In this document: positions 1 through 61,202 of the stretch, in pieces | Numbering within the stretch: position 1 is the first letter of the stretch | Layout: each line of letters starts with the position of its first letter | Assembly: GCA_002245135.1 (NCBI GenBank) | Contig: NGBS01000606.1 | Location: forward strand, 1-64,000 | Length of the DNA stretch: 64,000 nt | From: Proteromonas lacertae | Taxonomy: Eukaryota | Direction of reading: 5' to 3' | Notes under the pieces: generated by a model | What the model was told of the DNA's origin: nothing | Seen by the model: only the letters and a program-made list of their open reading frames with translations | Database searches by the model: none | Translations under genes and position numbers: made by a program

Positions 1-2588
1 TAATATATTCAGCAGTTAAAACATTATAACTTTTAGATGTTTCATCTATTCTATCATAATAATCACCTGTTATTACAAGATTAAACAACTATTCACATTA
101 TATTATAATGTATAGTATATATATATCATATATACTTGTTCTTTTGATAATTCATAACATGTTACTTCAATTGTCAATTCTACTCTATCACCCTTTATAA
201 AGTCTGGAGGAATTGTTATTACTTCAACGTTATTGTAACGATCTGGATACACTAAACCATTTGGATATATTATTGTGTCGTTTATTTCCACTGTTAAATC
301 CAAGTCATTCATACAAAGCTTCTTGAAGTCTTCTTCACTGGTGGATCATTCCACACTAATGTCACTTTGAACTTTTGCTTTGGATTATAATATACAGTTT
401 TAGTGTATTTATCTCTTTTAGTATAGAATCTATTATTATCTTTTATCAATTCTAATCGAAAGTGAGGATTATCTGCAAAATACAAAACCTTATCTAAAGA
501 AGCAATTCCAAATCCTTGTTTATGATTTGGCCATTCTTTGAATGTAACTTTTGCTCCTTGTTTTGTATAATATCCTTTTGCATTTTCACCACTATGAATT
601 AACATTGCTTTTACTAATGAAGAGGTTGGAGTAAGCCCATTTCCTGATACTTTTGTTCCTGTTGGATAATATCCTTCTTGTAAATACTGTTCAATAATTG
701 CAACAGCAGAAGCACCTAATGGAGTAGCCATTGATGTACCAGATTTAGTACTACACCACAACTATTATAATCAACTGGATTATTTTGTGAAGCAGCAGAA
801 GACCAAATTTCATCTCCCATGAATGAAATATCTGGTTTTATTCTATCATCATTAGTAGGTCCTTGAGATGAAAAATATGTTATATAATATTTTGTACTAC
901 ATTATAAATGATAAACATAAATATACTCTCTTGTGGTTGCATAGTATTGATGACTTGCTCCAACAGTAATTATATTTTTTCCTTGTGCTTGAGAGTCTAT
1001 AGATATACCTCTAGGAAGAAATTAGATTAAAAAAAATACGATAATTCACCTTCATTACCTGCAGCAAACAAAATGACCATATGCGGATTATTATATGCAT
1101 ATTCATCTATACTATATGTTTCCATGCTATATTTGTAATATTCAGCTCCCCAACTGTTACTAGATATAATACTGCCATAATCCTTCATTCTATCAAAGTA
1201 TTTTGATAAATCTTCTGGAACTGTCAATCCATCATCTTTCACTTGTATATCAATAAATGCAATTTTACTATCTTTAGCTAAAGAGTAAATAATGTAATAA
1301 AAGAAAATATGATTGAATTAATATATTGAAAAATGATATATTCGCTTCACTATCTTCATTTTGTAATGCACCAGCAGCTATTCCACAAACATGTGTTCCA
1401 TGTCCGTCTCTACAAATATAAACAATATATATATGAATTTATTATTATACTTTATATCACTTTTATCACCCATGTACTTTCATATCCTTGTACTTTTCTA
1501 TGATTTGACAGTTTAGTGTTATATTGTATTGATGCTGTTGTATCTCTAAATAAACAGTGAGACGTATCTAAACCAGTATCACCTATTCCAATTACTATAT
1601 TCTTTCCAGTTAACTTATTTCCTAAATACTTTACACCAGTACTAAAGCTCTCTGTATATCTGAAATGATTATAGGCTTGATTAGCTATACAAAACAATAA
1701 AATAAAAAATATATTAATAGATACATTTCACTCCACATATTTTACTATTATTGTGTGAAGATCTTAGTGTATTATGTTTTATCTTCAATTTTGGATCTAT
1801 TGATTCAATCATTGGTTCTAATAGTATGTAACTTAATACTTCATCTTCATTTCATCGTTTATTGATAACCTAATATAAGTATCAGAAGTATAATATTCAG
1901 AGAGAGATGAGTGCAATATTCGATAGTTAACAGAGTTAAGATTTCTCTTTAATAATTTATTTTCTCTTACCTTTTTGAAAGTATTTCTGTTGTTTTTCAT
2001 CAATTTTAGTATGTTTTCATAATTAATAACTGATTTGTCTTTTTCACTTTTGACCTTTTTTGTCTTATAAAGCTTGGATGATTGTAGCTCATCAACATAG
2101 AAATCTACTCCATTCATTATCATATTCTTTTCTTCCTTGTTAGAATTATCTCGAAATTTAATAACATATTCATCAGATATTTTATCTAATGTCAATAGCT
2201 TTATAAGTAAGCTCAACTCTTCATACTCGAAACTACAACTTGGATGATTTGTAAAATAGTCTTTTATCTTATTTTCATATGTATAAAAAATCATAGCACT
2301 TCCTTTATCACCTTTTATAAATTCTCTTCTTCCCAGTTCCTTTTCAAGATCTTCATTCAACACACAATCTGTTTTTACAACATACTCTTTGGGATCACTT
2401 GTAATATTGTAAAATGATTCATAATACTATATCAGAATAAATAAATAGTAAATGATTGAATGTAATACTCTATAAAATAATTTAGTATTCTCCTCATTTA
2501 TATTGATATAATCAATGTAGAATGGTTTTGCATCTGAAAAATGCACTAAAGCGATAGAGCAAATGAATAACAGAAATAGTATTTTCAT
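1..2588 (-). CDS. Subtilisin-like S8 serine protease (TagC/KP-43-like), paralog 1; 3' end runs off the window
   Basis: Signal peptide MKILFLLFICSIALVHFS from ATG 2588. Catalytic motifs GIGDTGLD, DGHGTHVCG, AAGNEG and SGTSMATP lie across exons, followed by IKPD and LVWNDPP. Three 1-bp deletions in homopolymers (~1478, ~746, ~315) break the frame. Confidence 0.88.
1285..1339 (-). other. Putative minor (U12-type) AT-AC intron, 55 nt
   Basis: ATATCATTTTT...TTATTACATTATTTAC. Removal joins EDSEAN|SLAKDSKI, matching the intron-free paralog 3 (YNSLAKNSRI). Confidence 0.7.
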
Positions 2589-2652
2589 AATTTTTTCATA
2601 CACCTAAAACGATCAAAAGATGTTAATTAAATAAATATGAATTTTGATATAT

Positions 2653-5553
2653 TTAAGGAGTAGGAACATTTATTTCTTCTGGAGATATTCTGTGATGATG
2701 TATTTCTTTCATTCTACAACGACATATACAATAACAACAAGCTAGTATCAAAAATAGAACAGCTACGCAAGCAGCTGATATTAATACTATATAAACAGGC
2801 TTCATTGTAGTTGATTCTGTAATACCACCATTCTCACTATCTGACTTCTTTGATGTTGGATTTACAATATATTGAGGGTTTTGACAAACAAGATCTACCT
2901 TCTTACCTGTAAAAGGATCAACAGAAATAATAGGTAATGGAAGAAGATTATATTCTTTAATTGGATCATTTTCATTATCATAGAATATACCAGTAATAAC
3001 AAGTGAATAATTCTGTGAAGAGGTTGAAATACTATCAGCACTAATGATTATTTCAGCAGCAAAATTTGATATAGTGTCATTACTATAATAGCATGGAGGA
3101 ATAGTAATAACTTGAACATTATTAGTATTATCTTCTTGTGATAGACTATTTGGATGGATTATTGTGTTATTCACTTTTACTTTTAAGTGTAAATGATTTA
3201 ATAAATAGGATGTTGCTCTATAATCAACTGGTGGATCATTCCATACTAAAGTAACTTTGAATTGCTGTGTAACTTAAAAAACATTAAGAAATACAATGAC
3301 ATTTATAAAAATATAAAAGAAAAGATATGTTAAAGTAATATTTGTATGAATGAATCTCATTTGAAGAAATACCTTCTTCTTCTAATAATAATAATCGAAA
3401 GTGAGGATTATCTGCAAAATATAAGATTCTATCTAAGGAAGCAATTCCAAACCCTTGACGATTGTTTGGCCATTTATCAAACAAATTCTTAGATTCTTGT
3501 CTTGAATAATATCCTTTTGCATTTTCACCACTATGAATTAACATTGCTTTTACTAATGAAGAGGTTGGAGTAAACCCATTTCCTGATACTTTTGTTCCTG
3601 TTGGATAATATCCTTCCTGTAAATACTGTTCAATAATTGCAACAGCAGAAGCACCTAATGGAGTAGCCATTGATGTACCAGAGAGTTGAAAGTAAGAGCA
3701 ATGCTCATAATTATCATTCTCTATTGCTTGTGATGAATATATACTTCTCCCCATTACAACTATATCAGGTTTGATTCGATTATCATTAGTTGGACCTAGT
3801 GAAGAGAAATATGAAATATAATATCTCGAACTATTCAGTATATACATAATAGTAATAATAGAATATATATACTCATCTGTTTCATCTTCATTAAAATCAG
3901 GTCTATTATTTGAACCAACAGAAATCCCATTTTTGAATTGAGCTTCTGAAGTTATTGTTGGATATCTAAATAATAATAACAATTATATTATACGGATAAT
4001 AACCATAGTTATTAGCAGCTATAAGTGCAACATGAGTAGGATTTGCATATAAGAATCTATCAAGATTATAAGATTCTATTGTATATTTATATTCATCAGT
4101 TCCCCAACTCATACTTGAAACAATACATCCATCATCCATTAATAATTTTAAATATTCTTCGCCAATGTCAATTGGTGTATATATATTTACACCACCTTCT
4201 CCTAAATCCCAAAATAATATTTTACTATCATATGCTAAAGATTAAAATAAATGTTAAAAATGAACTAAATAACAAACAATAACTATAGGAGGGAAAAATG
4301 ATATTTTTGAACTATCGTCAGTTATACTATATCCTGAAGCAATACCACAAACATGTGTACCATGTCCATTACTATATACAATACAATACAAATACATACT
4401 TTGTATCTGTACTATCAACATAAATGAAATACTCAACTACTTTCCTATGATTCATGTTTATATTATCATAAACAATATTATTGTTTTTATCATAAAACAT
4501 ACAATGATATATATCTAAGCCACTATCTCCAATTCCTAATAGTATATTTTTACCTGATAATTGGTGTTTCCAAGCTATTTCTTCACCTGTACTTAGACTT
4601 TGTAAATATTTTATATGACTAAAATCATCACTCTTTAATTGTCTACATGAACTTGTGTGATTATTGCATGAATATTCTTCTTGAATAATTGGAATAATTC
4701 TCTTTCTATGATTAATATAAACACTATCAATTTCATTTCGAGTGAGTAAATAACTTAAGATTTCATTCACTGATTCTGGCTCTATATACACTCTAAAACA
4801 AATTAAATAAATAAACAATAATACAGAATATGTTTCAATGAAGATGATTTTGGTTTTAAAATACGAAATGAATTGGATTTTAATCGTCTCTTTAATGATT
4901 GTTTATGTGATTTGTCTTTTATCTTTTTTCTTATACTCTTTGTGTTTTTCATAAGCTTAATTATCCTTTCATTGTCAATTACTTCGTCTAATACTTTTGT
5001 TTCCTTCATCTTTGTTTTATATGGTGATATTATGCTATTTACTTCATCCAAGTAATCTTCAACTTCATTCAATAGATGTATTAACTGATCTTCACTTTTG
5101 AGGTGGTTTTCTCTAAATTTCATTATATATTCATTATTTGTTGAATTTTTATTCTTAATAAAAATCAATTTCATAATTACACTCATTTCTTCATATTCTA
5201 GAGTGCAATCTTTATATTCAGAAAAACAATTCTTTATTTCACTTTCATTAGCATATATAATCATAGCAGTCTCATTAACACCTGATATAAACACACTTTT
5301 ACCAAACCATCCTTCAAAATCTACGCCTGAACTACAATTTGTCTTAATAACATATTCTTTTGGATCGTTTTCAAATCTTCTAAATGATTGGTAGTACTAT
5401 AAACAATAATAATTGTTGAATAAGAAAATGTGTAGATACCTTATTAAACAGTAATTTATCGTTATTTTCGAGGTTAAAATACTTTAAATAAAATGGTTCT
5501 ACACATTCACAACCTCTAAATACTATGAACAAAATAAACAAAAACTGACACAT
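2653..5553 (-). CDS. Subtilisin-like S8 serine protease, paralog 2, with C-terminal transmembrane helix and Cys cluster
   Basis: Motifs GIGDSGLD, NGHGTHVCG, SSLGPTNDNRIKPD and SGTSMATP; TM segment VYIVLISAACVAVLFLILACCYCIC; exons join in frame. Confidence 0.9.
3274..3328 (-). other. Putative minor AT-AA intron, 55 nt
   Basis: ATATCTTTT...TTCTTAATGTTTTTTAA. Removal gives YYFN|VTQQFKVTLVW, colinear with YYNPKQKFKVTLVW and YYNPKHMFKATLYW in the paralogs. Confidence 0.7.
4242..4304 (-). other. Putative minor AT-AA intron, 63 nt, at the same position as 1285-1339
   Basis: ATATCATTTTT...TTTTTAACATTTATTTTAA, containing in-frame stops. Removal gives DDSSK|SLAYDSKI. Confidence 0.65.
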
Positions 5554-5709
5554 TTTTCAAAAACTTTTCGTTTAAATAATCCCCAATTCTTTAAAACAGT
5601 TGTTAAATACACAAAATTCAAATAACAAATGTAAATAATACATATAAATATGTCATATAAAATTTAATCCTATCAAAAAAAACAGATTCTGATAGATTCA
5701 TTGATTAAT

Positions 5710-8547
5710 TCACTTCATTGTTGTTTTAAATCTAGCATTATTATCAGGTATTCTTTTAACAGATGGTTCAAAACAATTACCACCATCATCACTCTTCTCT
5801 CTCTCAGGAGTTGCTACTAATCTTCCTGTATTATGATTAGCAACAGTTGGTTTCTTTCTTCTCTTTCTGATGTTATAAGAACACATATATATGCATGTAA
5901 TAAATATCACTACTACTAATATACATCCAACAACAATGATTAGTATATACCCAAAAGCTAATTTTTCTGTAAATGAAATATATCCAGTTATTGGATCAGG
6001 AATAACAGGAGGAACAGGTAAAGGATCATAATAAACATCACGTTCATAATAACTATCGTAAAAATCACCTGTTAGGATTAAAACATATTCTTGCATTACT
6101 GAAAGATTTGAATATGTAACAACTACTTCTATTGATAATCTATCATTATTATATTCAATATAATTTGGTGGAATAATGATAACTTCAACATTATTTACAT
6201 TATCTAATGAGTTTCTACAATTTGCATTTAATAAAATTGTTCCATTAATGATTATTTGTATGTCCAAATCATTTAATAACAGAGATTTTGATTTTCTAGT
6301 AACTGGAGGATCATTCCAATACAGTGTTGCTTTAAACATATGTTTAGGATTATAATAATAATAAAATATTTGTGTTTTATTAGTTGAATGAATAATTTTT
6401 TCAAATATTTTTAATCTGAAGTGTTTATCATCAGCAAAATATAACACTCTATCCAAGGAAACTATCCCAAAACCTTGCTTACTGTTTGGCCAAGATGTAT
6501 ATTTATGTTCAGTATAATAATTCTCTTCAACATATCCATATGAATATTCAGCGCTATGAATTAACATAGCTTTTATTATAGCTGATGATGGTACAAATGA
6601 ATCTTCAGGATTCTTAGTACCACTTGGATAATATCCATCTAAGAAATATTCTTCAAGTATTGCTACAGCTGCTGCTGCTAAAGGTGTTGACATTGATGTT
6701 CCTGATTTGGTAGATTTATCACAATGTTGAGTAGTTGATAGTCTTTTAGATTTGGCAGAATATATTTCATCTCCCATTAGAATTATGTCTGGTTTGAATC
6801 TTCCATCAACAGTTGGACCTTCAGATGAGAACTGAGTTTCATAATACTTTGATCTATTTGTATATAAATAAATAATTATACTTCTCTTTTAATCCACTTA
6901 CTGAATTAGGTTGTAATGATGCTCCAACAATTATTGCATTCTTTGATTGGCTTTGACTTGAAATTGTTTTAGCACCTCTTTTTCCTTCATTTCCAGCTGC
7001 GTATATAACAACAAAAGTTGGATTATTATATCTATTGTAAAAAATATAATACTTCAATAATAACAATACATAAATCTATCAATTCTATATGTATCTTCAG
7101 AATAATAATATACATTAGCTCCCCAACTATTACTTGTTAATGAATCACCTTTACTCATCATCTTCTTAAAATAACTATTCTCAATATCACTTGGTGCAAC
7201 AATTATATCTCCATCTCTGCTTAAATCCCAGAAATCTATTCTACTATTTTTAGCTAAACTATTATAAGGAGCATCATTCATAGTAGAAGAACCAGCAGCA
7301 ATACCACAAACGTGTGTTCCATGTCCATTACTATAAACAAATATAATTAATTGACATACTTTAAATCTTCTATATCATTCTGTAATGTATTATAAGAAAT
7401 GACTTTTCTATGGTTATAATTTACTGAATTGTAATATATTCTCTCATAACTATCATAAAACATACAGTTTGTTACATCTAATCCAGTATCACCAATACCC
7501 ATCATTATATATTTACCTGTCAAGTTATGGTTTGATGCTATTCTTTTTCCTCCACTTAAACTTTCAGTATAAGCAAAATGATCATAATTAGCTGCTAATA
7601 CTATTTACAAATCATAATTAAACATATAGAATACCTCTACTTTCTCTTAAACTCCTTTTACAGTTTTTATTTTCTTTTATATCAAATAAAACATTCTTTA
7701 ATCTTGGAAATATATCAATCACTTCTTTTTCTAAACATAGATAACTAATTATTTCATTGATTGAAGTTGAATGGATGAATAACCTAAATATTTATATGAA
7801 ATATAGATATACGGCATATAATATTCATTATTATATGAATTACTAACTTCTTCTAATAACCTGAAAGAATTGCTTGATGAAATTAACAACCTTTTGTATT
7901 TCATTTTCTTTGCTTTTGATTTGATTGATTTTCTCATTTCCTTATTATGTTTCATTAATTGAAGGATTATCTCATGATCAATTACATTATTTGGCTGTGA
8001 CTGATCATTTATTTCTTTTATATCTTTTGATTCTACTGTTTTTAATTCATTTATATAAATATCCAGTTCATTCAATATTTGATTTATTTTGTCTTCTATT
8101 TTGATGTATTCATCTCTCATTTTCACTATATATTCATTACTCTGTTCTGATTCTTTTAAGAACAACAACTTCATCAGAATACTCATCTCTTCAAATTGTA
8201 ATGAACATTCTTTATTTTCTCTAAAATACTCTTCAATTTTCTCTTCACTAGAATATATTGTCATAACACTTTCTTTGCCCCCTGCCACAAATACTCTTTC
8301 TCCTAACTTTTCTTCAAAATCGATATTCGCACTACAGTTTGTTTTAATAATATATTCTTTTGGATCAGATATTACCTCTTTAAATGATTCATAATACTAT
8401 GGATTAAAGAAACAAACTAGAAATTTTACATACCTTTTGAAACAATTCTAGATCTTTCTCTTCTATGTCAAAATACTGCAAATAGAAAGGGTGAAGTTGT
8501 GTACATAAGGACACAGCGAAATAAGCCAGAAAAACAAACTGAAGCAT
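5710..8547 (-). CDS. Subtilisin-like S8 serine protease, paralog 3, type I membrane-anchored
   Basis: Signal peptide MLQFVFLAYFAVSLC; motifs GIGDTGLD, GHGTHVCG, YAAGNEG and SGTSMSTP; C-terminal TM helix. Confidence 0.9.
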
Positions 8548-8666: not shown

Positions 8667-10147
8667 TTATATTAATTGTTTTTCTATATACTGGAATAAT
8701 TTCTCTTTCATTCTACGTTTATTGCATTTTAATGCACTATAATCCATAATCCATTTATACATTGTACCTATTTTAACATTTGATAAATCGAATTTCAACA
8801 GCTCATTAAGTGCTGGTTCAATCCTTGCATCATGAAATGGATAATATTCCATCTTAATTCTATTATTATTAGCTAAAGAGCATGCCATCCATTGAATCAA
8901 ACATTTCAATTCATGATTTCCATGATATACTCCACAACCCCAGTTACCAGTACTTAAAACTGTTTTATTTGTCTTTTTCTCATCAATTAAGAATGCAGTA
9001 TACGCTTTATTCAACTCTCTATCAATACAAGTCTTACTAAACTGATAAAGAGAATTATTTCCTTTGACTGTTCCATTATTCATGAAATGTAAAGCATCAA
9101 ATATAGTTATCTATATTAATAAAAAACAATTAATACATCATTTTGTATTACTCCATCTTTTACATCAGTAGTATCTTTAATAATTCCATTCAATACTGCC
9201 TTATTTCCATATCCCTCATATTTATTAAACGATTCACATCCTTGTACAAACACAGCTTCATTATCACTCATTTTCTCACACAATAGCACAGCCATTAATG
9301 ATTCTGGTGATCTCATTTCTATTAATTCTTCTTGTATTAATCCATAACCTAATACACCTCCACCTACTAAATTATTTGCAAATATTGAATGTATTGTATC
9401 ACTATTGTCTGTTAAACTACCTTCTGGTTTAATTGTAAAATCACAAAGAGTTTGAGTGACGTTTGACCAATCGATTGGGGCAGGTAATACATTACGAACT
9501 ATTCTTATATATTTACCTTCTGGATTATGTAATTCTTTTTCTTTCATACATTTGAAATATTGAAATAAACCAGCTATTTTTTGAGGAATTACTACTTTGT
9601 TAAAACCAAAATTTCTGCGATTTAAAATGTAACGGAATGTTGCACAATTCATAGGTGGATCTGGATATGAACCAATTAACAAATGAGACATTAGATAGGT
9701 TACATATTGACGATCTATAAGAATCTCTGAACTCTATACGAATATAATATATTAAACAACAATACAGATTGTGATTCAAGATAAGGCAATCTATTATCAT
9801 TGAATTCAATTAGTTTCTTTGAACATTCCAATATGTACTATTATTTTAAAAATTGTTTATCAAAAATATTATACGTTAAATACTCCATCATCATTTAGAT
9901 ATTCATTATAGTCTAAAACTCCACTACCATCTTTATTGAAAATTTGTGGTACAGCATTAGCAATTTGTTTTTGTTTGAATGCTAAGAACATATTACTGAT
10001 TTTTTCAACAGTATAAGGTGGTGTAGGAAGCTTTGATAAGAAATCTGACCAGTTTTTCTCTAATAAACAATATTTGTTTTCTTTCCATAACATATATGGT
10101 AAATTAATAAATTTTACTGCTTTTTTGCTAGAAGTAAACTTGAACAT
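8667..10147 (-). CDS. PARG: Poly(ADP-ribose) glycohydrolase
   Basis: Catalytic loop FANNLVGGGVLGYGLIQEE; motifs RELNKAYTAF and TGNWGCGVY; three GT-AG introns join the ORFs. Confidence 0.92.
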
Positions 10148-10243
10148 AGAGTTAACAATAATTCTATATTTTTGGGAAAACGAAATAATTTTCAGACACC
10201 CCGAATACAATTTTACATAAAAACGAATAAAATAAACAATTAA

Positions 10244-13200
10244 CTAAGTATTTAAAGGTTCTACTGGAGGTGTAACAGCAATAGGAAGTGGAGTACTACT
10301 TTCAGATTGAATTTCTTTCTTCTCTGAAGTTTTCATACTATCTGGTGTTTGAAAATCAAATTCATTTTTACTATTATTAGCTGCAGGTGTAGTAACATTA
10401 TGTGTCGAAGTACGATTAACAATTCGACTATTTCTATTAACTATACTATGTGTAGTTGCAGTATTACCATTAATATGAGTATGTGAAGTACGACTAACTG
10501 TTTTATGAGCTATACTACCATTACTAACACTGCTTCTATCTCCTTGCGTAGGATGAGAACCACATGTTCTTATCAAAACAGTTTTAGTAGTTCTTTGAGT
10601 TAATGTTGTATATCTTATTGCTTGGAAAGCTAAATTTGTACTTTCATTCTGTGTAAAGACAGAGTAACCACTACCTATTTGATTATTTTCATTCTTAGCT
10701 TGTTGTTCTTCTTTATAACCAACCATTTTCTCAACTACGGCATCTTGAAGTTCAGTATTCATTTGTTCAAAACCATTGAACCATCTTAACAAATCCTTTG
10801 CTTTAGTAGCATGAATACTACCTAAAAATGATTGTCCACAATTCTGTATTATCAATTGTAGAACTTCTTCATCTACTTTTTCAAATAATTGAGCATTTGG
10901 TTCTTCTTCTGCTGCTGTTTTTAATATTTTTTCTTTCAGTGAGTCACTAATATTCACTTGATATTTACCATCATCTTTAATATATTTATCAATCATTTTC
11001 TGTGTATAAACTTTTAATTTCTTTGGATCAGTATTTGGATTGTTGGCTATTTTGAAGAATTTTATTGAATCTAAGAAGTAATAAATGTTTTCCTCTAAAT
11101 GTAAATCTCTCATATGAAACATTAAGCAATATCTACTAATTGGATCAGCTAAAATCGCTGTATAAGTTGCATTAATTGATGTATAAGGTCCAATTACGAT
11201 TTTATTGGACATTCTGACATGAATAAATGTAGGAATACTAAGATAATATACTAATGATATAATAATGTAAATTATAACAATTGTCAATCCATCACCAAAT
11301 GAAATAGCATGTAATGCAAATAATAAGTCAATTATAATGAATAATAAATCACCTACTATAACAGCAATATTCATTATCAATAATTGCTTTTCTAGTTTAA
11401 TCCTTAATAATCTGAAACAATCAATGAGTGACACTAAATCAACCAAAATCTATAAGTAAATAATTAAAAAGCAAATATTTAGATAATCATACACTACAAG
11501 CTAATGCTAAAATCATATTCAAAACATCTGCTCCACAAGTTTCATAGTGAATTGGGATTCCTGCTCTCACATATTCATTCATATATTTGTTTTGGTATAA
11601 ACTTATTGATAGAACAGCTGTAATAATGAAGAAAACTCCAAATCTTTTGAAGTAAATACGATAATCTGCTTCTAACACCATATTCTTCTTTATTTCTTCT
11701 TCAGCTGTTTGATGACTGATACAATAATGTGATCTATTCATATTACAATATCAAATATTTTATACATACGATGCTATAAAAACATTAGCGAAGTAAAATA
11801 AATATAATCCAACCCAACAATTAATATCACCACTTGTTCCAGTTAAAATAAGAAAAGAAATTGTTATTAATACATAACCAAAAGCTCCTGAAAATATATA
11901 AGTTCTTTGTGTTGTAAGAGAAATAGCCAGATGTTTTTTTAAGAAAAATATAGAGAATAGTATTATTGATATAATGAAGGTAATACATGTAAATACCATT
12001 TGTATATAAAACAACCAAGAGGATGATATATTATCACAAGGAATATTTACATTTTCTGTTGGTATTTTTATACCTTTTGTACAAATATGTGGTTCTTTAT
12101 AAAACAATCTAACAGGCAAATCAGTGCTTTTACATTTCTTAAACTCCATATCAATATTAGATAATTTGCAATCATTCAATACAGCAACTGCATTAAATGA
12201 TACATCCTTATAACACTTTCCAGTAGTTGGTTGTGTATTTGTTATAGATATGAATGGCAAAGAACATTGAGTAATTGAATCATCATCACCATTTGATTTA
12301 CATTGAGTTAAATCGACAGTTATATTGAATGTATATGTTTCACCTTTAACTATTTCTCTATATATATCAATATTGGATGTATATATTGAAGCAGTACTTA
12401 ATTCTTTACGCAATTCAATTGTTAATGGCAATTCTCCATCGTTGTGAATTGATACACTTGATGTTGATGTTGTATCACCAGTATTATATCTGAATGTAAT
12501 TGTTGATTCATCTGATTTCCAGGATGCTAATTTTGTTAAATCAGAAATGGGAGTCATAAATACCATGTACAACGTTTTAAATACTTTTGGACTCCATGTT
12601 ACATAGTATTCAATTCCATTTATTGTCACTATAGAATGAGATAATATTAATAATTAGTTATACTTGTAATAATTCTCTCACTATACTCTCTGTGACTATT
12701 CAGTTCAGTTTCATTCATTTGCAACAGCTTATAAATGAATTTAAAATCTTCGGATTGATCTTGAAAATATCCTATATTATACAAACTAATATCATCACTT
12801 TCACTTTCACCTTCTTTCTTATGAAAGAATTGTTTCAGTGTATTATCATGTGCATATACAACATCTCCTGCATCAAGAATACATATAATATGACTATTCT
12901 TTGTAAAGTTGTATTTCTCACTAAATACATCAAAATAATCGATTATATTCAATTCGCTACTCATTGAACCAATTCTTTTACCTTTGTAATGCAATAAAGC
13001 ACAAAATGCTAAAACCCACATTTTGCCTCTAGGATCATTCTCACTTACGTATGGAGGAGATATGTATGGTTCTTGTGTTGGGTTCTGCTCTTCATTTCCT
13101 AGATAAGCCCAAAAGAATTCCTCATTATGCCAGATATCATCACTATAACCATAATCACATACTTTTGGAGCAGTATTTTTAGGATATATCATGTCGATAT

Positions 13201-13672
13201 ATGGAGAATCTCCTACTGTAATACCACCAGATGGACTATTCAACAAAAGATGAAGATATTCTAAAGCAGTATCACCTTTACTAAGAATATCAAGCATTTC
13301 TTGCTTTTCTGCATCATTCCAATTTGTTTTATTCGAACTTACAGGAGGAACATACATTATCATAAAATCACCAGCATCTTCTTCACTCATATTCATATGT
13401 CCATTATGCGTATCATCACAGTGAATAAAACTACTAGCGAGAAACCTGCTTCTAAATACCGGATAATCAGTTAAGACATGGGATTGAAAATCCACAGCAG
13501 CCATGTAATCAGCAAAATTCCCTGAAATATCATCATATGCAACTGTCGCTGTGTCTGAAACGCTTTGTTTGTCACAAACCAACCTATGTTACAAATATTC
13601 AGATTAACTATACAAAGACGAAGTGCTAATACCAGATAAAGTGATAATAAAAAGTAATATGCTGAATATCAT
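10244..13672 (-). CDS. Predicted receptor: signal peptide + dCache-like sensor + beta-rich/Cys-rich linker + ~7TM + RGS domain (~1090 aa)
   Basis: Five exons join in frame through four GT-AG introns. Cache-like motif PYISPPYVSENDPRGKMWVLAFCALLHYKGKRIGSMSSELNI; seven hydrophobic segments; RGS motifs EENIYYF and KYIKDDGKYQVNIS. Confidence 0.8.
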
Positions 13673-20609: not shown

Positions 20610-22781
20610 TTACGATAATAATTCCTCTCTCTGTTTTTGTAACATCAATTCAGTTTGTTGTACTTTATACTGAGTCTCAGTCAAAGCATCTGTCAATTCT
20701 TTAATAGTTTTATCTTTTGCTGCAATTGTATCTCTAATCTTCACTTGTAATTCACTCAATTGTAAATCATAGTCATTATGGACTTTATTGATTTCTAATG
20801 TATGTTGATGATTCAAAGCATCTATTTCACTTTGATGACTATCTATTTTTAACTCCAATTCATGATTTTTCTATATGAATAAGAATTATCATTAATATAT
20901 ATACAATTTCAAGTTGTCTTATTTGTTTCAATAATGGTTCTTTTGATTCATTACATTTATAATTGATTTCACTTTCATGCTGTCTTATCTTCGCTTCTAA
21001 TGACTGAATTGTTGATAATCTTTCTCTTAATTTATCATTTGCATCTTTCAAGTTATTTTCTATAGCTTTTACATTCTCTTCATTTGAATTAATCACTCCC
21101 TCTTGAATGGATATTTTCTTTTTTAATGAATCTATTTCAGTTTGTTTACTTTGTAATTCCATTTGAAAACTAACTTTCATATTTCTAATCTTATTTTCAT
21201 ATTCATCAGCTGTAGTTGAAACTTTGTTATTGGTTTCTTCAGCTATTTTGTTCAAAATACTATCAATTTGTTTATCTCTTTGTTCTGTTAATTCTTTTCT
21301 CATTTGTGTTTCTTTTATTCTATAATTTTCTTCATATTGATTCTTTAAACTTTGTTCTATTTTTCTTTTTTCTAAGTCTAATTTTTGATTCACTATTTCA
21401 CACTCTTCATTTAATTTCTTTTGTAATTCTAATTTCTCTTTATTATAGTTCTGTTGATATTCCATTATCAATTGATTCTTATTCTCTAATTTTCTTTCAT
21501 ATTCTTCACGGATACTAGCTTCGAATCTTCTTCTTTCCTCCATTTCTAGTTTCTTTGATTTGGTTAACTCTTCTTGTAGTTTTACTCTTAAATCAGATAT
21601 TCTTTGTTCATAATCGTCTGTTAATGATTTTAATCTTTCTATTAAATAATTATAATAGATATATACGATCTTGTATTTTTCTATCATTTAATACATCATT
21701 TTGATGTTCATTTTCTACTTGAATTCTCATTTCAGCTAATTTTCTATTCATATCACTTTGAAATGTATTTTTCATCTCATCTATTGTATTTTCATATTTC
21801 ATCGCCATATCCTTCATTTTATTCTGCTGTTGTTCAATTATCCTCTGTAATTCAGGAGCCATTTTCTATTAAGAAAAAATAGATATATATATGTTTATAC
21901 GCTCATCATATCTTTCTTCAATGCTTCTGTCTTTTCTTCTTCCCATTTCTTTCTCTTCTCTTTCTCTTCTTTTGCCCATTTCTCTTTTGCCCTCTTAAAT
22001 TCATCCTGCAAATATTTCTTTTGACTTTCAAACGTATTTTGTTTTCTTCCTTCACTACTTTTTATTTGATTTACCAATTTGTCAATTTGTTCAGTCAAAT
22101 CTTTTTTATCATTTATTAGTTGTTCTAACATTGTTCTTTTATCATCTAATGTTTTTTCGTATGTTTTTTTCATTACTCTCATATCAGAATCATGATCTTT
22201 CTTCATTGATTGAATCATTGATTCATATCTAATTTTTTCTCTTTTCATTTTTTCTTGTAGTAATTCTATTGTTTTTGATTTGTCTTCTAATTCCATTGAC
22301 ATTGATTGAAGTTTTGCTTTTACTCCATCATAAAGAGATGCCGCTGTTGTTGTTGGATTCTGAGTATTTGAGGATTGGGGAATATTTGGAGATGGTGAAG
22401 GAGATAAATTCACTTGTATTGGTCTTTTATGATTTAAAGAATGATGAGTGTAATCTGATGATGGTTGAACAGGTGATATTCGAGAGTCTTGTGAATGCTG
22501 AGACAATTTGTGAGATAATGGCGCTGGTGATATTGTAGACATAGAATTTTCATTTGAATTCTGTCTCTGCTGTGGTTTTGAATGATAAGAATATAAAATC
22601 TATTATTATTGGAACAAATTATACATCATCTGAATAAGAAGGTAAAGGCGGTGGAGGTGGTATTGTCACTGGTACATTTTTTGCTTCATCAAGAAAACTC
22701 ATAAAATCATTGATCTTAGACTTTGTTCTTCTACTTCTATCTATGAATATAGCTGTTCTATATTATACCTGCATCATCCAT
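20610..22781 (-). CDS. CEP131: Centrosomal coiled-coil protein CEP131/AZI1-like
   Basis: LEQLINDKKDLTEQ...KKWEEEKTEALKK...MAPELQRII and the C-terminal coiled coil follow the CEP131 pattern; exons join in frame. Confidence 0.72.
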
Positions 22782-26992: not shown

Positions 26993-28015
26993 TTACACCA
27001 AACTACTCCTAATACTTCCACTAGTCCTCTCTTCTTCTCTTTTATCTTCTTCATCCAATAACAAATCAATAGCTGAGCTAAATGAAGGTAAAGACGGTAA
27101 ATTTGGCATAAAAAACAACATACTTGTAGTTTCTTGATATTCTCTATATTCATTCACATTCTTCCTTAATTGTCGTTTCTCCATCATAGGAATAGATATA
27201 AATATAAATAAACATGTCATTAATACTGGTCCAACCAACAAATAATGCCAATGTTGTGTATTGTTGAGGATATTAATAAAATAGAAACTCCACCAGAATG
27301 TAAGTTCACAAAAATAATTGGGATGTCTTGAATATTTCCATAAACCAACATTACATATTTTCTTTGAATTATCACCATTAGAATGGAATTTTCTTAATTG
27401 ATAATCTGCTATTCCTTGACATACAACTGATATAACAATTACTACATAAAATGGAATGACAAAATAGGTAAATGTACTGTTACTAGAATATTTAAAATAA
27501 TCAAAAATTGGTTGAAGGTTAATAAATACAATTAAAGTTGGTATAAAATCAATACACACAAAACTTGATATAAACCATAACTTTGGAGAATATCTCTGTA
27601 TTAGAGTGTATCTCCAATCTTGACACATCAAAGATTTAAAAGATATTCCCCAATTAACTGTAAGTCTTATTGACCATAGTAAAACTAAGCCAAATAATAT
27701 AAGATTACCAAAATTCCATTTATAGTATAAAAATAATGCCCACAATAGCAAAACTGGAGGAAAAACACTCCAATACGGATCGTACACAGAAGCATTATTA
27801 ACTATCAAACCACCAACCCATACCACTACTGTAGCAACTGTATCGATGATGAAAAACGAAATACGTAAATCCATATTTTGTAACGGAATAAACACACCCA
27901 GTGCAAAACCGAACGCAATCAAGTATACTCCCACTATAAATACAAACGAAAGCAGTCGGTTCTGCCTGAAATTCTCATATAAAGACTTTGTATTGTCAAG
28001 CTGCATGTTCGTCAT
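26993..28015 (-). CDS. DUF1295 / steroid 5-alpha-reductase-like membrane protein, intronless
   Basis: Motifs NASVYDPYWS, WSIRLT, QDWRY, GLWKYSRHPNYFCE and SIPMMEKRQL. Confidence 0.88.
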   Translation of the reverse strand: MTNMQLDNTKSLYENFRQNRLLSFVFIVGVYLIAFGFALGVFIPLQNMDLRISFFIIDTVATVVVWVGGLIVNNASVYDPYWSVFPPVLLLWALFLYYKWNFGNLILFGLVLLWSIRLTVNWGISFKSLMCQDWRYTLIQRYSPKLWFISSFVCIDFIPTLIVFINLQPIFDYFKYSSNSTFTYFVIPFYVVIVISVVCQGIADYQLRKFHSNGDNSKKICNVGLWKYSRHPNYFCELTFWWSFYFINILNNTQHWHYLLVGPVLMTCLFIFISIPMMEKRQLRKNVNEYREYQETTSMLFFMPNLPSLPSFSSAIDLLLDEEDKREEERTSGSIRSSLV

Positions 28016-28055
28016 TATTATATTAAAAAAATATAGTGGTTTCAAACAATAACGA

Positions 28056-29871
28056 ATGAATAGATTGAACGCATTGAAGCTCAAGAAAATAAGATGGAGT
28101 CATAGAAAAAGTATACTAGATCCTGAATACCGGGTAAAAAGTTTGAAGCGAAGATCAACTGTTGATGAGAATGATGGAACAATCGAAGTGTTTGATGATT
28201 CAGAAATATTTCCTGGTATAGAATATATTTTTTATAAAATTATCAGAGTCTTTGAGAAATCGAAGTGATTTTCAAAAAATGTTCAGTTCTGACCCAATTC
28301 CATTATACACAGTAGCATTAAGAAAAGTACCTCATGGTATTTATTGTTGAAAATTATATTGAATAGACAGATCAAGAGATGATGTTAGTCTAATAAAAGA
28401 TTATGTAAGTCATTTACCACTAATAGACTTATTAACAGAAAGACAACAACAAGAACTAGCAGAAACAATGTATGTAGAAAAGTTCAATAAAGGTGATATA
28501 ATTGGAGATAGTTCAAAAGGTAAAATAGTATTTGGAATAATATTGAATGGTGAAGCAGAAGTGTCGTATATAGGAAAACAGAAAAGATCAAAAACAATGC
28601 TGTATAAGAATGAATTAATAGGAGAAGTATTTACTTTTATTTTATAATAATTCTTTATAAATAGAATATTTGTATGAAAACGAAATTCTTTAAGAATGTA
28701 ATAATAAAAGCATCTACAAACTGTGAAGTAGCTAAAATAAAACAAGAAAGAGTTCATTTAATCTTCGATTCACGTCGAGAGGATTGTATAAAATCAAAAT
28801 TAGAGTTTCTTAATGATATTGATTTATTCAAAGGATGGGAAGCAATGCATTTAAATAGAGTTGCAAGTGTATTAAAGACAGTAATGTATATTTAATATTT
28901 ATTAACATAAATAGATTTGCTCCAGCAGCGTATATAGCCACTCAAGGTGAAATGCCTGAAGATATGTTCTTCGTAATTTCAGGACATATTCTCATCCAAA
29001 GAGAAGTGATTATTCATCAAAAACATACTGCTCCAACTAGTGCACATACATGGGAAACTAAATACTATAAATCTTCGAGAATAGTGAATGTGGGTGATAT
29101 TTTACCAGGTCAATATTTTGGTGAAAGTGCATTGTTGATGAATGAACCAAGATTTGCTCATTGTATATCTGCTGGAATCACCAAAGTATTGGCATTAAAT
29201 AGAAACGATTTTTTGTTATTAGCACATGGTAAAACATTTGATGTATATATACATATATTATTATTATTATTATTTATTAATTAATTAGATTATTGCCTCA
29301 AGAATGGAAACTTATCACACTGATGAATCATTAGAACAATTGATTGTAGAAAAAGAAAACGCTGAGAAAAGATGTATTCATCGAATTCATTACAAATTTG
29401 CAGAGAAAAATAAAAAGAAAGTGTTGGATCTAACATCTGATAAAAAAGAACTTCATGATAATGATGCAAACTCCAATTTTTCACCAATTAAGCATTTTGG
29501 TTCAAAATCAACATCATCAATACCTCATAATTATTTAAAATTGCCTAAAATAGAAGAACATAGAGCTTCAAAATTAGCATCATTAAGTTCATTGAATTTA
29601 TATCCATTTTGCTCCAACTCCTATGTCAGATCATCCACCTAAAAGATTATCCACAAAATTGGCTGAAGAAGATGAAGAAATTGATGTAGTTTCTCCATTG
29701 AAAAGAAATTCAATTACATTTAATCCACTTAATACTCCTATAAAGAGAGTTAGTTTAGTAGTTAGAGAGATAGAAAGAGAGATAGAAGCAAGTGAAAGTG
29801 AAGAATATGGTTTTGATGAAGATGATGATTTTCTAGATGATGGAATGGATAATGAATATGGTGATTTGTAA
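28056..29871 (+). CDS. Protein with two cyclic-nucleotide-binding domains
   Basis: ATQGEMPEDMFFVISGHI and PGQYFGESALLMNEPRFAHC; the first CNB domain is degenerate; 1-bp indel near 29608. Confidence 0.8.
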
Positions 29872-33914: not shown

Positions 33915-36900
33915 CTATTCCCAAATGAATTTAGTCAATTTAATCGTTCCATCTACTCCACAACTTATTAACGAATTATCTAATATAATCATATCTAATA
34001 CTCCATAACTTGTCAACTATAATCAAAATAAATATATATAATATACGACAGCATCTTGTAGTGGTTTAATAAGTGTATTTTTAGGGTGTATATTAACAAT
34101 AGTATCAACTAATTGAAAGGATTTACTATTCCATATCTTAATATCACCATCAGTAGATCCAGTAATGAAATATGGTTTTGAAGGATGAACTAATATTGAT
34201 TTAATTGCAGAATTATGTGCATTTTCATTCACATAAATGAATTTCCTCTATTTCAATATAATTAAATATATATACTTGTCTCATATCAAAAATATTCATA
34301 TCGCCTTTATCTCCTCCACTAATAATCATTCCATTAACACTCTCATAGCTGATACTCAAACCACCATCAGGATGACAAGCTGGAGCTTGAATACAAGGAG
34401 TAGAATTACTCACTAAAATATCCCAAATCTTCAAATTCTGTTTTCCTTTATTAGAACCAATTGTTCCAAGTATTGAACCACCATTCAAATAAACCATATC
34501 ATTAGCACGTTTGCTAAAAGCTTGAATTACCTCAATGGATCTATTGTAATACAAATTCCACAGCCACAAGAAACCTGTAGAATTTAAAGCACAGAGTTTA
34601 TTTCCTGAAGTATTAATTCTTACATTAGTGATTCTATGTTGTTGTGTAGATAGATCAACACCAGTTTTCTCATAAATTGCTATTGCATTTGGTTGTGAAT
34701 ATTGCCATAAAGTAACAATGCCATTTGTACTGCCTGATACATAGAATGGTAGCATTGGATGACTGGTTAATCTGATACTATTACTCTTTTCTTTAGAAAA
34801 TGCTGTTGTTGGTGAAACTAAAGATTGTAAATCTATTTATAGAATAATGTATGAAATAAATAAATACTTTTATAATAATTATATTCAGTAATATAAGCAT
34901 TACGAACATCATCTATTCCACTATTCCTTGGTGTCACTAGACAATTACAACTTATAAATATACTTGGTTTATCACTTTGAGTTTCTTTCATTTCATCCCA
35001 TATACTCAATTTCTTTGTTATATAAGCATAATCTTTAATTGACTTTTCACTGATTTTAGTTGCATTGCAAAATGCTAATAATTGATATTTTCCATATTTT
35101 GAACAACTGATACTGGTGATGTTATCATTACTTCTATATATTTCAATTGGCTATATCAAATGATAATATATAAAATGAATATATATATACATGAGCTTTC
35201 GGATTCTTCATTTTGAATGTTGTAATATGTTCTTGTCTTCTTTGTAATAGCTTAATTAACACTGGATTAAGTTCATAATCCCACCATAACTTCTCCATTG
35301 AATCACTACCAAATATCTAAACAAAATAATATATATATAATAAATCATACACTTGTATAAGATTCACTGAAATATAATAATCTTTGAATTACTGAATCTT
35401 GTTGTGTTTGAGTTAAATCTAAATGATTATAATAATTAACATTCTAAAAATATACGTGAAATAGTGAAAGATGAGAGTTTATCAATAAGAAACACTTCAT
35501 ATCTATACAAACTATTGGATAATGCTCTAAACTCATCAAATAATTCTTCATCAACTTCATTAGTAGCTTTTAACTTTGTTTCAATTGTTAAATAAATCTC
35601 TTTTACAACATAAATGGATAATAATTTTGAACAATATTGTTGAGCGATTTTGATTGGATCAATAATTTCACTCTTAAAAACTTGAGATGGTTTGACATTA
35701 TTTATATAATAATGCCATAATGATGAAACAGTTGTAACAATTGACTTTGAAATAGGGAATGATAACCCACCTATATATAGATAAAAATAACAACAATAAT
35801 AAAAATATATTTATACTATTTCTCCACAAATGTAATTGATATAACAATGGATAATCCAACATCAAATAAGCAGCTAATGAAAAATAACAATACACTAATA
35901 TCATAATAGAGTTATAATTGGGTTTAGTAATATCATCACTATTAACATTATGGCTGTTTATTGTCTGGTTCAATAACACATTACTATATAACATCAAACC
36001 AACTGCTAAGATTCTTGGAACATCCATTTCTATACGATGCAATTGAGTTTCACATAATTCATTGATATAATTTCTTAACATTTTTGTTAATAATAACAAT
36101 ATTCTATTATCTAATATAATTGATGATTTGTGGTAGAAATCCTTAATCTGATAAGTTAAGAATGATCCAGTTGTTAATGCATAATTCAATTGTATTGATT
36201 TATAGTCAATCTCTTGAGTAAAATAGGTTATGAATGACATTTCTGTTTCTATTATTGAATGTGCTTTTGTTGGTGTATTTCTGTCATTATGTTTACTCAA
36301 GCTATGAACAGATTTAAACAACAATTTCTCTTCATCTCTAACTAACCTTTTAATTAATGTAGAAAGTGTATTTTTCAATAACACATCCAATTGACTTTTA
36401 TTGATATAATTAACACCTGTTGATTCATGTAATATCAATAATTTCTCATACGCTAAAGTATAATTCTTACTATTGGCATATGCAATTGATGATTTGATCA
36501 AGCTTGCTTCAATAAAATAATTATATTCATCACTTCTTTTCAATGGAGGACAAGACGTTAATAAATAATGAGCCAAATATGGTGTTGATGGTTGATAACG
36601 TGATGTTAAAACTGGATAAATTGTATCTTTAATGTTTGGATCTGACTTATAAAAATCTATTACTTCTGGTGCAATATTAAACTTTGGATAATTCTTTTCA
36701 CTCATTTCTTGATCACTAATAACATCACTGAATAGTATTAAATATGAACAATTGTGTTCTTTTAATAACCAATAACAGATTGAAGCTAAATACCAATCAC
36801 GATTGTAATATGCCACTGATAATATGTGATTTCTAATAATACTCTCATATAATTCTGTATTATTTGGACATAACATTTTACATATTAACAATGCTAATTG

Positions 36901-39086
36901 GTAATCATGTAAATTCTATAATTTTAATAAATAAATATAATAAAACATACTTTTAAACAGACATTTATTGCATCTTCAATTTTATTGGCTAAAAGGAAGA
37001 ATACAACAGCTGTATCATATCTTCTCTTTGATAATAAAACAAATGCATTCTTGGAAGCAGCAATTTGATGTTCTTTCTGATTAAAATCTCTACTAAAGAA
37101 CTGGAACAACTTTGTATCTTTTGCTAACTTGAATAAGTTTGTAACGACTATTTTTTGACTTAATAATAAATAGAATAATGCACAATTCATTGGTTCAGAT
37201 TTGTTATTCTGAAATTCTGCCATTGCTATCTTTTGCACCAACTGTTTTAACTTTATATTAGAATCTAACCATAGTAAAATACCATACTTCTTCAAATTAA
37301 CCCACAAATTAGGAATTGATGGTAAAATATAATCTAAAAACACATCACTAGATCTTGAATGTAAACCCCATAGAATATCAATACTTTGTATATTGAATAC
37401 TCTTTGATTCTCTCCTAAGTACTTATTGCCAAAATCATATGATTTTACTGCTTTCATATATTGAATTCCAGCATTGTCAAGACTTGAAGATATTGGATTA
37501 TTTCCACAAAATAACACTTTATATGTTTCTAATATGGTTTGTAAAGCAGGTAAACTGGATTTATCCATACCTTCTACTTGCATATTCTATTTTATAATAA
37601 TAATAATATATATACTGGTAATTCTTTTACTAAAATATCAATCATTTCATTATTAACCACTACTTTTTCTCTTATATATTTATTGGCATTATTTGCTTTC
37701 TTTGCTTTATTAATCAATACAATCTCTTCTAATGAATTCTCTTTTAGTTTTGGTGAATTTGGACTTACATCACTGAAATTATCATCAATAACACTATTCT
37801 GTTTAGACAAAGCAGGTGTAAATTCATCAAATATGTTTGATTCTTTTTCTACAGGTGTTATAGCAACTCCTCCACCTCCTACTCTACTACCTGATCTTGA
37901 TCTAAACCCAGATTTAGATGGGAAATAGAGATTTGGAGGAAATGTAGAATCATTATTGCTATTAGTAGTTTCATTCTTTAAGTAAAATGGTTCTAATTCA
38001 TTATAAGTGGACATCAAATTAATAACTGGTAAATATGGTAATGCAATGATATATTCAGATGATTTTAGCCCCAAAGTTTCATCTTCTTCTTTCTGTTTAA
38101 TATATTCTATTGTATTATCATAAATAAACTTAATCAAATATTTCACTTTATCATAACCACCTTCACTAAAGAAATGCAACATAAAAGTAGGAACGAATGT
38201 GTGTTTTGAGAATTGTACATGATCTGAGAGTGATATAATGTTATTGGTTGATATATGAGGTATAATAGTATGATTATATTTAGATTGAATTGGTACTCTT
38301 GGTACAATCCATGAAGAAAAACACAAAATAGAATTATTACAAGTTACTACTAGATTTCCATTTAAAGTCCATATTAATGAATGAATAGAATCAGTTATTA
38401 CATTATCACCTGATGTTTTAGAGAGTGTATGCCAAGTATCGTACTCATAATAATAAATAGATACATTCTTACCATATCCTATTGCAATAATTGGTTTAAT
38501 AGTTTGAAATTCACTCCACGCAATACATAATCCATCATATTCATCTTCTTTACATTCATAATCAAGTGATTCTATAAGATGAAATCGATTTACACTGGAT
38601 AAACACCCATAAATCTTTACATTTAAATAAACGATATTATCTTTGATCTTTTCATAACCTACAGCTACTTTACCGAAACAACATCTTACAATTACTGGCT
38701 TATAGTCTATTTCAGGTAATTTAAACTCATCATATGGTAAATTCCTATCAATTATCCATAAACGCAATACATTATTCTTATGAAAAGAAATAAATGACAT
38801 ATTCTTATTGGATATTGTATAACCAATAGAATCAATACAACTATCAACATCAACTAAACCTTCTTCAATTGGAATAGTTTTAACTGTATATAAAGTTGGT
38901 TTAAAATCATTGAAAATATTGGGTAAACTATAAACCATTATAACTTGACCAGTATCTGTTTCAGTAATGTATATTATATACACATTATTCTCACTGTAAT
39001 ACACTTGTAAGAATGAATTAAATACTGTTGAATTAGATCGAACAATGGTGGGAGTAGAACCACAGAAATTAAGTGAACCTACAATA

Positions 39087-39134
<48 letters not shown>

Positions 39135-43409: not shown

Positions 43410-43629
43410 TTTCTTTAATGACTATTATTATTCTTAAATCTATTACTTGTTCTACATAAACAATATAAACAATATTGAACTAAAATAAGATAAATCGTTC
43501 AAATTAAAAAAATATGAATGTTTTTGAAGTCTATATTAATAGATACAGTCAAATTTAATAAAAATAAAATAGGTTTATCAAAAAAATTCACAAACCAGTT
43601 TCAGCACTATTTACATATAAAATATTTAC

Positions 43630-44997: not shown

Positions 44998-45243
44998 TTA
45001 TTTTTTATTTTTTTCTTTGATATTATTAAGTACTTTCAAATCTTGCTTGATAGATTCATTCAATTTTTCAATACCATCTTGTAATTGACATAAAATCTAT
45101 TTAAAAATAATAACAATAACGAAATAATACATTTTCTAAGTTTTCTTTTTGTTTATCATTCAATTGAACATTATCTTTACTAAATTTCCATCCTTGTACA
45201 TTCTTCAATGAATTTAATTCAGTTAATCTTGCATTGAAAGAAC

Positions 45244-45286
<43 letters not shown>

Positions 45287-46425: not shown

Positions 46426-46820
46426 TCTCTCTAAAAATTGAAAAGAATGTGAGAGAGTTTCAAAAATATATTCGTTTTTAGATGTATTTTGAATGTAATA
46501 AACAAAACATGAAAATAAACATCAAACAATAACATCATAAAAATATAAAAAACTAAAATGCGCTTATAAAGAAGTATAAGTAAAGAATGAAAATCCATTT
46601 TAAACAAAAGTTCTGTCTCATTTTTCTTCAAAACAATATAGTGACTCACTTAATTCGATTATGTGATTTTTTTAGTTTATATGTTTATAATTCATTAGAT
46701 TATCTAAAAATGATAAAACATACTAAAACGAATATTTTTTCAATTTTTAAAATTCGTTATTTATGCTAGAAAGGTTTAGAGAGATATAAAGGTTATTTTT
46801 AATATATAAGTCAGCAAGAA

Positions 46821-61153: not shown

Positions 61154-61202
<49 letters not shown>

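Follow-up and report, generated by a model that had tools for sequence, protein, structure and literature searches.

We analysed a 64-kb stretch of Proteromonas lacertae DNA (assembly GCA_002245135.1, contig NGBS01000606.1, positions 1 to 64,000; hereafter the window), which is AT-rich (~27% GC), gene-dense and eukaryotic, with a standard genetic code. On its minus strand, from 13672 to 10244, lies a gene predicted to encode a 1094-residue receptor in which a large ectodomain with a dCache-like sensor, a seven-transmembrane (7TM) bundle and an RGS box form a single chain, an arrangement that may make it a ligand-gated GTPase-activating protein (GAP).

Exon structure and relatives of the receptor gene

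Four minus-strand stop-to-stop open reading frames (ORFs; 12647-13588, 11760-12653, 11487-11750 and 10244-11449) and a 59-nt exon carrying the ATG (13672-13614) make up the gene, and the introns between them measure 30, 35, 36 and 43 nt, all with GTAT..AG ends. Enumerating the GT-AG pairs at the four junctions (4, 3, 2 and 4 options) gave 96 combinations with an open frame, four of which use GTAT donors at every junction, and the shortest of these four yields the 1094-residue model (Table 1). The introns have a GC content of 16-23%, against 27-33% for the exons. When each junction was shuffled, a suitable GTAT..YAG intron arose by chance in 7-11% of 5000 trials, or about 5e-5 jointly, a value that goes with a donor motif chosen after the data were seen. 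A rough survey of the window that allowed only GTAT and GTAA donors returned 44 candidate introns, 27 of them of 25-44 nt, and their lengths are not fixed at 30 nt.

Relatives were sought with phmmer, using exon 2 against 1,835,955,588 representative sequences, and three matches were returned: P0001 (84% identity), P0002 (46%) and P0003 (34%). Their clusters hold 7, 15 and 22 members, respectively; 37 of these 44 members are listed, all from Logan except one unrelated fragment. The alignments exclude P0018 (52 aa), which is unrelated, as well as four short fragments, P0013, P0016, P0034 and P0035. Two exon products of one gene family that do not overlap fall into a single 90% cluster (P0003/P0025), a hint that a longer member linking them may be among the 7 of the cluster's 22 members that are unlisted. 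Word-based protein searches retained 0 of 651 candidates with exon 2 and 0 of 836 with exon 5, both for longer proteins, and 2 of 5722 with profile A2, which is weak evidence; no related locus was found among 202 pattern matches in metagenome contigs or 172 in genome contigs, and tblastn found no paralogue of the receptor within the window. Of ten ORFs of the window looked up in the protein collection, none was present.

These relatives bear directly on the splice junctions. A 51-nt alternative to intron 1 would remove residues 21-27, where C23, D24 and S27 are common to P0002 and P0003. At junction 2, P0002 (601 aa, reaching into exon 3) reads through without an intron and with the same methionine that splicing creates, and at junction 3, P0025 reads through without a gap and then ends where intron 4 begins. 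Junction 4, which joins the RGS exon, has no intronless counterpart among the relatives listed; there the mean hydropathy of helix 5 is 2.32 across the junction, as against 0.82 and 1.54 for either side alone. The join of exon 4 to exon 5 is supported because helix 5 is complete only across this junction and because the two exons lie just 43 nt apart, with a canonical GTAT..TAG intron between them. This argues against a reading in which the Cache part and the RGS exon belong to separate genes, or in which the locus is a decaying gene, and so do the relatives at 81-85% identity that keep exon 2 open and the shared end point of P0025. Such a reading could draw on the missing intronless relative at junction 4 and on the fact that our searches found no full-length relative, and we hold it to be highly improbable. 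The predicted five-exon, single-protein structure is, by sequence and homology, confirmed, and with it the proposal of the first-pass annotation that four ORFs and a signal-peptide exon splice into one protein: the 1094-residue frame is open, and relatives read through junctions 2 and 3.

Table 1. Features of the predicted receptor gene in window coordinates (aa, residues of the 1094-residue model; TM1 to TM7, the transmembrane helices)
Feature	Position	Strand	Evidence
Exon 1: ATG and predicted signal peptide (aa 1-20)	13614..13672	-	Sequence; hydropathy peak 2.18
Intron 1, 30 nt, GTATAG..CATAG	13584..13613	-	Splice enumeration and junction shuffles
Exon 2 (aa 20-327): stalk helices, distal module and most of proximal module of dCache-like domain	12664..13583	-	ESM Atlas; dCache_1 matches in P0003 group; P0002 model
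Intron 2, 35 nt	12629..12663	-	P0002 lacks it and stays in register across the junction
Exon 3 (aa 327-613): end of dCache-like domain, Ig-like domain, cysteine stalk, TM1-TM3	11770..12628	-	57% identity to P0002 over 288 aa
Putative ASH/PapD/MSP-like Ig domain (~aa 360-475)	12183..12530	-	Fold matches of P0002 model
Putative four-cysteine ELAPOR1_C-like juxtamembrane stalk (aa 480-524)	12036..12170	-	Profile and Pfam matches, weak
Intron 3, 36 nt	11734..11769	-	Absent in P0025; gapless alignment over the junction
Exon 4 (aa 613-693): second intracellular loop, TM4, second extracellular loop (containing Cys679), N-terminal half of TM5	11493..11733	-	P0025 alignment, E 3e-5
Intron 4, 43 nt, phase 0, within TM5, GTAT..TAG	11450..11492	-	Coincides with the end of P0025
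Exon 5 (aa 694-1094): rest of TM5, TM6, TM7, RGS box, tail, TAG stop	10244..11449	-	ORF; Pfam; hydropathy
RGS box (aa 790-904)	10817..11161	-	Pfam PF00615 above cut-off
C-terminal tail, ~190 aa, distal half Ser/Thr-rich	10247..10816	-	Sequence; no family match above cut-off

Domains of the predicted receptor

The ectodomain is assigned largely through its relatives. All five exon-2-like members of the P0003 cluster long enough to cover exon 2 match dCache_1 (E 1.1e-5 to 5.1e-5), and P0013 does so at E 0.003, all of them below the cut-off; in P0003 the match covers profile positions 103-190 only. With exon 2 itself, ESM Atlas gave 0.96 to dCache and PDC clusters, with ten of the ten best named matches in one family or clan. 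The AlphaFold model of P0002, built from an 18-row alignment, was compared to solved structures with the VIA fold search, in which residues 13-338 matched the dCache chains 9hvj (Z 8.4, rmsd 2.5, 100 residues aligned) and 6mni (Z 7.5, rmsd 3.2, 95 residues aligned) and residues 212-340 matched 4wy9 (Z 7.5). Aligned to solved dCache domains, the model contains the long N-terminal helix and the membrane-proximal PAS-like module. Neither a sequence match nor a fold match to VWA was found in the ectodomain, and neither exon 2 nor profile A1 retrieved anything relevant from the PDB by sequence. Together, the sub-cut-off Pfam matches in relatives, ESM Atlas and the fold matches support moderately a dCache-like ectodomain.

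Conservation is concentrated in the distal module, where 41 of 107 positions are identical across the window, P0002 and P0003; the stalk has 19 such positions out of 104, and the proximal module 9 out of 95 (the module boundaries are our own estimate). The membrane-distal module is also the usual binding site of dCache ligands, and the amino-acid sensors of the dCache_1AA type carry the motif YxxxxRxWY ... Y ... D (PMC8915833). Neither YxxxxRxWY nor RxW[YF] occurs in any of the four sequences checked. In an alignment made by eye, Y198 is kept throughout, and two relatives have Asp at E230; the tyrosine and the acidic residue that hold the amino group are kept in this way, and the arginine that holds the carboxylate is not, a pattern also described for amine-sensing dCache domains relative to amino-acid sensors (PMC10589655). 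It is this pattern that makes an amine a lead. The dCache_1AM amine sensors combine an aromatic cage with a terminal Asp and, within an insertion upstream, an Arg-Asp pair (PMC10589655), and the invariant Y164, Y166, W171, W178, Y193 and Y198, with the acidic residue at 230, would fit this pattern in kind. A small ligand other than an ordinary amino acid would bind the membrane-distal module, and an amine is our guess, from the aromatic residues and the retained Tyr and Asp/Glu.

The absent amino-acid motif, in all four sequences, can also be read as a sign that the ectodomain binds a protein or matrix component rather than a small molecule, with the receptor placing a constitutive GAP at contact sites. 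GPR179 offers a precedent, since its Cache domain is unresponsive to glycine and binds a protein, pikachurin, there (PMC11437087), and the Ig-like spacer would keep the domain away from the membrane. Yet the compact, aromatic-rich distal module is strongly conserved among relatives that are only 33-46% identical, which fits a pocket, and we consider binding of this kind distinctly unlikely.

Between the dCache-like domain and the membrane, the P0002 model points to an Ig-like domain of the ASH/PapD/MSP type: its residues 340-456 match such domains in Foldseek (OCRL ASH, E 9.4e-5) and in VIA (Z 9-10.4 to VAP MSP, Hydin and central-pair proteins). We regard a putative ASH/PapD domain in this position, ahead of the stalk, as moderately supported. 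The stalk itself resembles ELAPOR1 weakly, both by profile A4 against ELAPOR1 structures (E 0.015, with the four cysteines in register) and by Pfam ELAPOR1_C (E 0.033 in P0025 and 0.14 in the window). ESM Atlas gave no usable match for exon 3. LeuT matches and a sub-cut-off Pfam 'Rhv' match (E 0.033 and 0.00089) were treated as chance.

Hydropathy analysis flagged the signal peptide (residues 1-24) and six stretches from 530 to 771; the remaining helix, TM3 (~597-613), falls just under the 1.6 cut-off and was counted by reading. TM1-TM3 are helical in the P0002 model, and the counts of Lys plus Arg are 3, 5 and 4 in the inner loops vs 0, 2 and 0 in the outer loops. A disulfide between TM3 and extracellular loop 2 is not specific to class C receptors. 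P0025 retains both Cys597, which tops TM3, and Cys679 of extracellular loop 2, and a disulfide between these two regions has been described for GPR158 (PMC8611064). A three-chain fold of the transmembrane pieces scored 0.00. As a whole, the sequence argues moderately for a class C-like seven-helix bundle with outside-in topology that lies below the family threshold.

Such class C-like marks could also suit a conventional activating G protein-coupled receptor (GPCR), that is, a guanine nucleotide exchange factor (GEF) with an RGS brake of its own for sharper signals, and in Naegleria both GEF-dependent and self-activating G-alphas meet 7TM-RGS proteins (PMC9283941). The bundle is, however, too diverged to pass 7tm_3, and GEF activity of 7TM-RGS proteins goes unreported in the parts of PMC9283941, PMC3971589 and 10.1101/2025.09.10.672744 drawn on here, so that we think a GEF improbable.

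The RGS box begins ~20 residues after TM7, within the exon that holds TM6-TM7, and matches PF00615 at E 1.4e-8 (35.6 bits, with a cut-off of 23.9) and 6e-10, spanning positions 3-111 of the 117 in the profile. By sequence, the predicted chain is of the 7TM-RGS kind, with seven helices and a C-terminal RGS box linked via intron 4. The canonical motifs EEN (813-815 region) and VN (858-859) are kept, and alignment to RGS18, RGS10 and EhRGS-RhoGEF is weak (E 0.05-0.15; best 0.047). In the last helix, Asn and Ser replace the Asp and Arg of RGS18 and RGS10 at surface positions that we take to correspond to RGS4 D163 and R167, on the GAP surface. These two replacements, along with the weak similarity to solved RGS domains and the fact that some RGS domains are not GAPs (PMC3971589), would favour a catalytically weak or dead box that serves as a G-alpha dock, effector or scaffold, with signalling via the tail or other partners. 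The intact motifs and the nearly full span of the domain speak against this, as do the protist 7TM-RGS boxes that have been assayed, which are GAPs (PMC9283941), and we judge a weak or dead box unlikely, if the most serious of the alternatives to a ligand-gated GAP.

The Ser/Thr-rich half of the tail may contain phosphorylation sites. The sequence TGTTTATT stands at 10231-10238 (minus strand), 5 nt past the receptor stop and one base off the Blastocystis polyadenylation motif; it is probably there by chance, as a similarly placed motif of this kind was seen at 1 of 16 ORF ends examined. In the window as a whole, TGTTTGTT occurs 4 times in 64 kb, vs one per ~3 kb in Blastocystis ST1, ST4 and ST7, which, like the variable intron lengths, makes a human-type Blastocystis host unlikely.

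Several results beyond the gap at junction 4, the altered last RGS helix and the glycine-unresponsive GPR179 weigh against reading this chain as a dCache-7TM-RGS receptor. Exon 2 of the window itself lacks a Pfam Cache match and does not reach the curated dCache_1 cut-off; the matches in relatives, at 17.6-25.6 bits, are far below that cut-off of 45 bits, and P0001, P0002, P0007 and P0016 have none. For exon 2, several ESM Atlas rows have under 170 features in common. The P0002 model, with a mean pLDDT of 52, is weak; its residues 144-226 fall below 50 so that the distal pocket is poorly modelled, and exon 2 modelled from its single sequence reached a pLDDT of 34. PAS domains match the P0002 model equally well (Z 9.5), and Z values below ~8 can reflect a common arrangement. 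Pfam 7tm_3 in P0025 is below threshold (E 0.0072, 16.4 bits vs 33.5), and the separate pieces of the window gave no 7tm_3 match, the whole spliced bundle not having been scanned. The RGS exon appears in no relative's piece among the members listed, and no G-alpha motif was found within the window.

What the first-pass annotation had made of the protein is supported in part. A large ectodomain, about seven transmembrane helices and an RGS box are borne out by hydropathy, loop charges and the Pfam RGS match. Its Cache fold holds moderately, through ESM Atlas, the relatives and the P0002 model, but not through any Pfam Cache match of the window's exon 2; and its ligand-regulated GAP stays a proposal. 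The architecture it described stands, but it had overlooked the ASH/PapD domain and the stalk that resembles ELAPOR1, the class C-like features of the seven-helix bundle, and the parallel with GPR158/mGlyR-RGS7, the closest that is known to work.

Other genes of the window

Downstream of the receptor gene is a poly(ADP-ribose) glycohydrolase gene with at least two exons (8667-9733, minus strand; PARG_cat_C), followed by a tandem array of about three subtilisin (S8) genes (309-8400, minus strand), at least two of which end in a predicted transmembrane helix and within which 5710-6888 matches Peptidase_S8 at E 8.4e-13. The minus strand also carries a DUF1295/steroid-reductase-like membrane protein in one long ORF (26993-28099, E 1.2e-43) and a pentatricopeptide-repeat protein (58143-59108, PPR_2 E 8.3e-29), the latter consistent with a host that keeps an organelle genome. 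Two further minus-strand products have no Pfam match at 1e-3: a coiled-coil protein at 20860-22599, which we take to resemble the centriolar-satellite protein CEP131, if right a hint of a flagellated host, and an ORF at 50530-51072, presumably a transposase or CENP-B helix-turn-helix protein. On the plus strand, two adjacent protein kinase genes (41421-44937) come from a recent duplication: their kinase exons are nearly identical, and a C-terminal unit is repeated. Ordinary eukaryotic genes encode a Rav1/RAVE WD40 protein, Nup54, a PP2C phosphatase and Sec16 (34225-40574, 45223-46521, 51894-52928 and 61086-62846), and a 99-nt tandem repeat of 2.4 copies with 83% matches lies at 63677-63912.

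Known receptors and a possible mechanism

AtRGS1 of Arabidopsis is not known to have a large ectodomain. It shares with 28 Naegleria fowleri proteins, with Trichomonas proteins and with the receptor described here the arrangement of seven helices followed directly by an RGS box (PMC9283941), and its modelled 7TM has been reported to resemble class C GPCRs (10.1101/2025.09.10.672744). The Naegleria proteins differ in their ectodomains, which are of EGF, lectin and GPS types (PMC9283941) where the present one would combine dCache, ASH/PapD and an ELAPOR1-like stalk; the word 'Cache' is absent from the main text of that paper.

A second likeness is to GPR158/mGlyR and GPR179 with RGS7-Gbeta5, in which an extracellular Cache domain, a cysteine-rich stalk and a class C 7TM control an RGS GAP (PMC8611064, PMC11437087, PMC12834959). 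There, RGS7 is a separate protein, the Cache domain is one PAS-like module and the stalk is EGF-like, whereas here the RGS box is fused into the receptor, the Cache domain is predicted to be double and the stalk to be ASH plus ELAPOR1_C-like. PDB sequence searches found no match to GPR158, and no GPR158/179 chain is among the fold-search matches listed, lists that are dominated by the Ig domain and so exclude nothing. We treat the likeness as an analogy rather than as homology: the receptor may work like GPR158-RGS7 and falls outside that subfamily.

Other proteins share two of the three parts or one. The diatom protein TP_7830 (B8C7N6) of Thalassiosira pseudonana carries Cache_1/dCache_1 on a class C-like 7TM in a protist (PMC3251606, PMC4822843 supplement, PMC3727952), but is 846 aa long with no RGS output listed ('No_output'), and it is not among the three phmmer matches to exon 2. 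CHASE and CHASE4, which belong to the Cache clan, are tied to RGS boxes in CHASE-RGS, CHASE4-RGS and CHASE4-HAMP-RGS proteins; the supplementary figures of PMC3971589 list these and 7tm_3-RGS, with 'Cache' appearing once, with 7tm_3 alone, and the CHASE architectures listed there have no 7TM family and use HAMP relays. Alpha2delta and CACHD1 likewise have a eukaryotic dCache domain, with a VWA insertion stated for all eukaryotic dCache_1 proteins found in PMC8915833 and none detected here; six supplements of that paper contain neither 'RGS' nor '7tm'. In our literature searches, no description of the dCache-7TM-RGS triple was found, although the RGS-fusion surveys Anantharaman 2011 and Bradford 2013 may list it. 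The view of the first-pass annotation that the architecture is uncharacterised can be kept for the triple and not for its pairs: Cache_1-7tm_3, 7tm_3-RGS and CHASE-RGS are already catalogued in surveys, and what is new is confined to the triple and its stalk.

We favour, at a little better than even chances, a ligand-gated GAP receptor that would be a one-chain analogue of GPR158/mGlyR-RGS7. Its functional steps are modelled on 7TM-RGS proteins (PMC9283941), whose RGS domains are GAPs in Naegleria, and on mGlyR-RGS7 (PMC12834959, PMC11437087), in which the Cache domain binds glycine and alters the activity of bound RGS7 (PMC12834959). In this model, a single 1094-residue receptor would sit in the plasma membrane, with its extracellular dCache sensor controlling the intracellular RGS domain, and the signal would pass from the distal dCache module through the Ig-like domain and cysteine stalk to the seven-helix bundle and on to the RGS box. 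The RGS domain likely speeds GTP hydrolysis on a G-alpha subunit. On binding, the ligand would move the stalk and the 7TM bundle and reduce GAP output. This would come about either through a change in the position of the RGS box, like that of RGS7 on mGlyR in response to glycine, or through tail phosphorylation and endocytosis, as with AtRGS1, and a self-activating G-alpha would then turn on. A bolder form of this proposal, to which we give somewhat less than even chances, makes the receptor the founding member of a protist single-chain 'mGlyR-RGS7' family, in which a VWA-free, bacterial-type dCache domain with a new pocket, possibly for amines, gates a fused RGS GAP via a class C-like 7TM, the Cache-to-RGS logic known from human GPR158 having arisen independently, by fusion, in a eukaryote distant from animals.

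A 2025 opisthokont survey reports no Cache domain in non-metazoan glutamate-class receptors (PMC12716839), and next to that survey's absence outside animals the predicted receptor would add a non-animal, Cache-bearing receptor of class C type. Whether protist 7TM-RGS proteins are true ligand receptors, and how cues alter their GAP activity, are questions stated as open in PMC9283941. A 7TM-RGS protein with a soluble dCache domain makes the ligand question directly testable, since thermal shift and calorimetry are routine screens for domains of this type (PMC8915833, PMC10589655). If the ligand-gated reading is true, the receptor would serve as a one-chain model of the step from Cache ligand to RGS movement, which is unresolved for mGlyR (PMC12834959).

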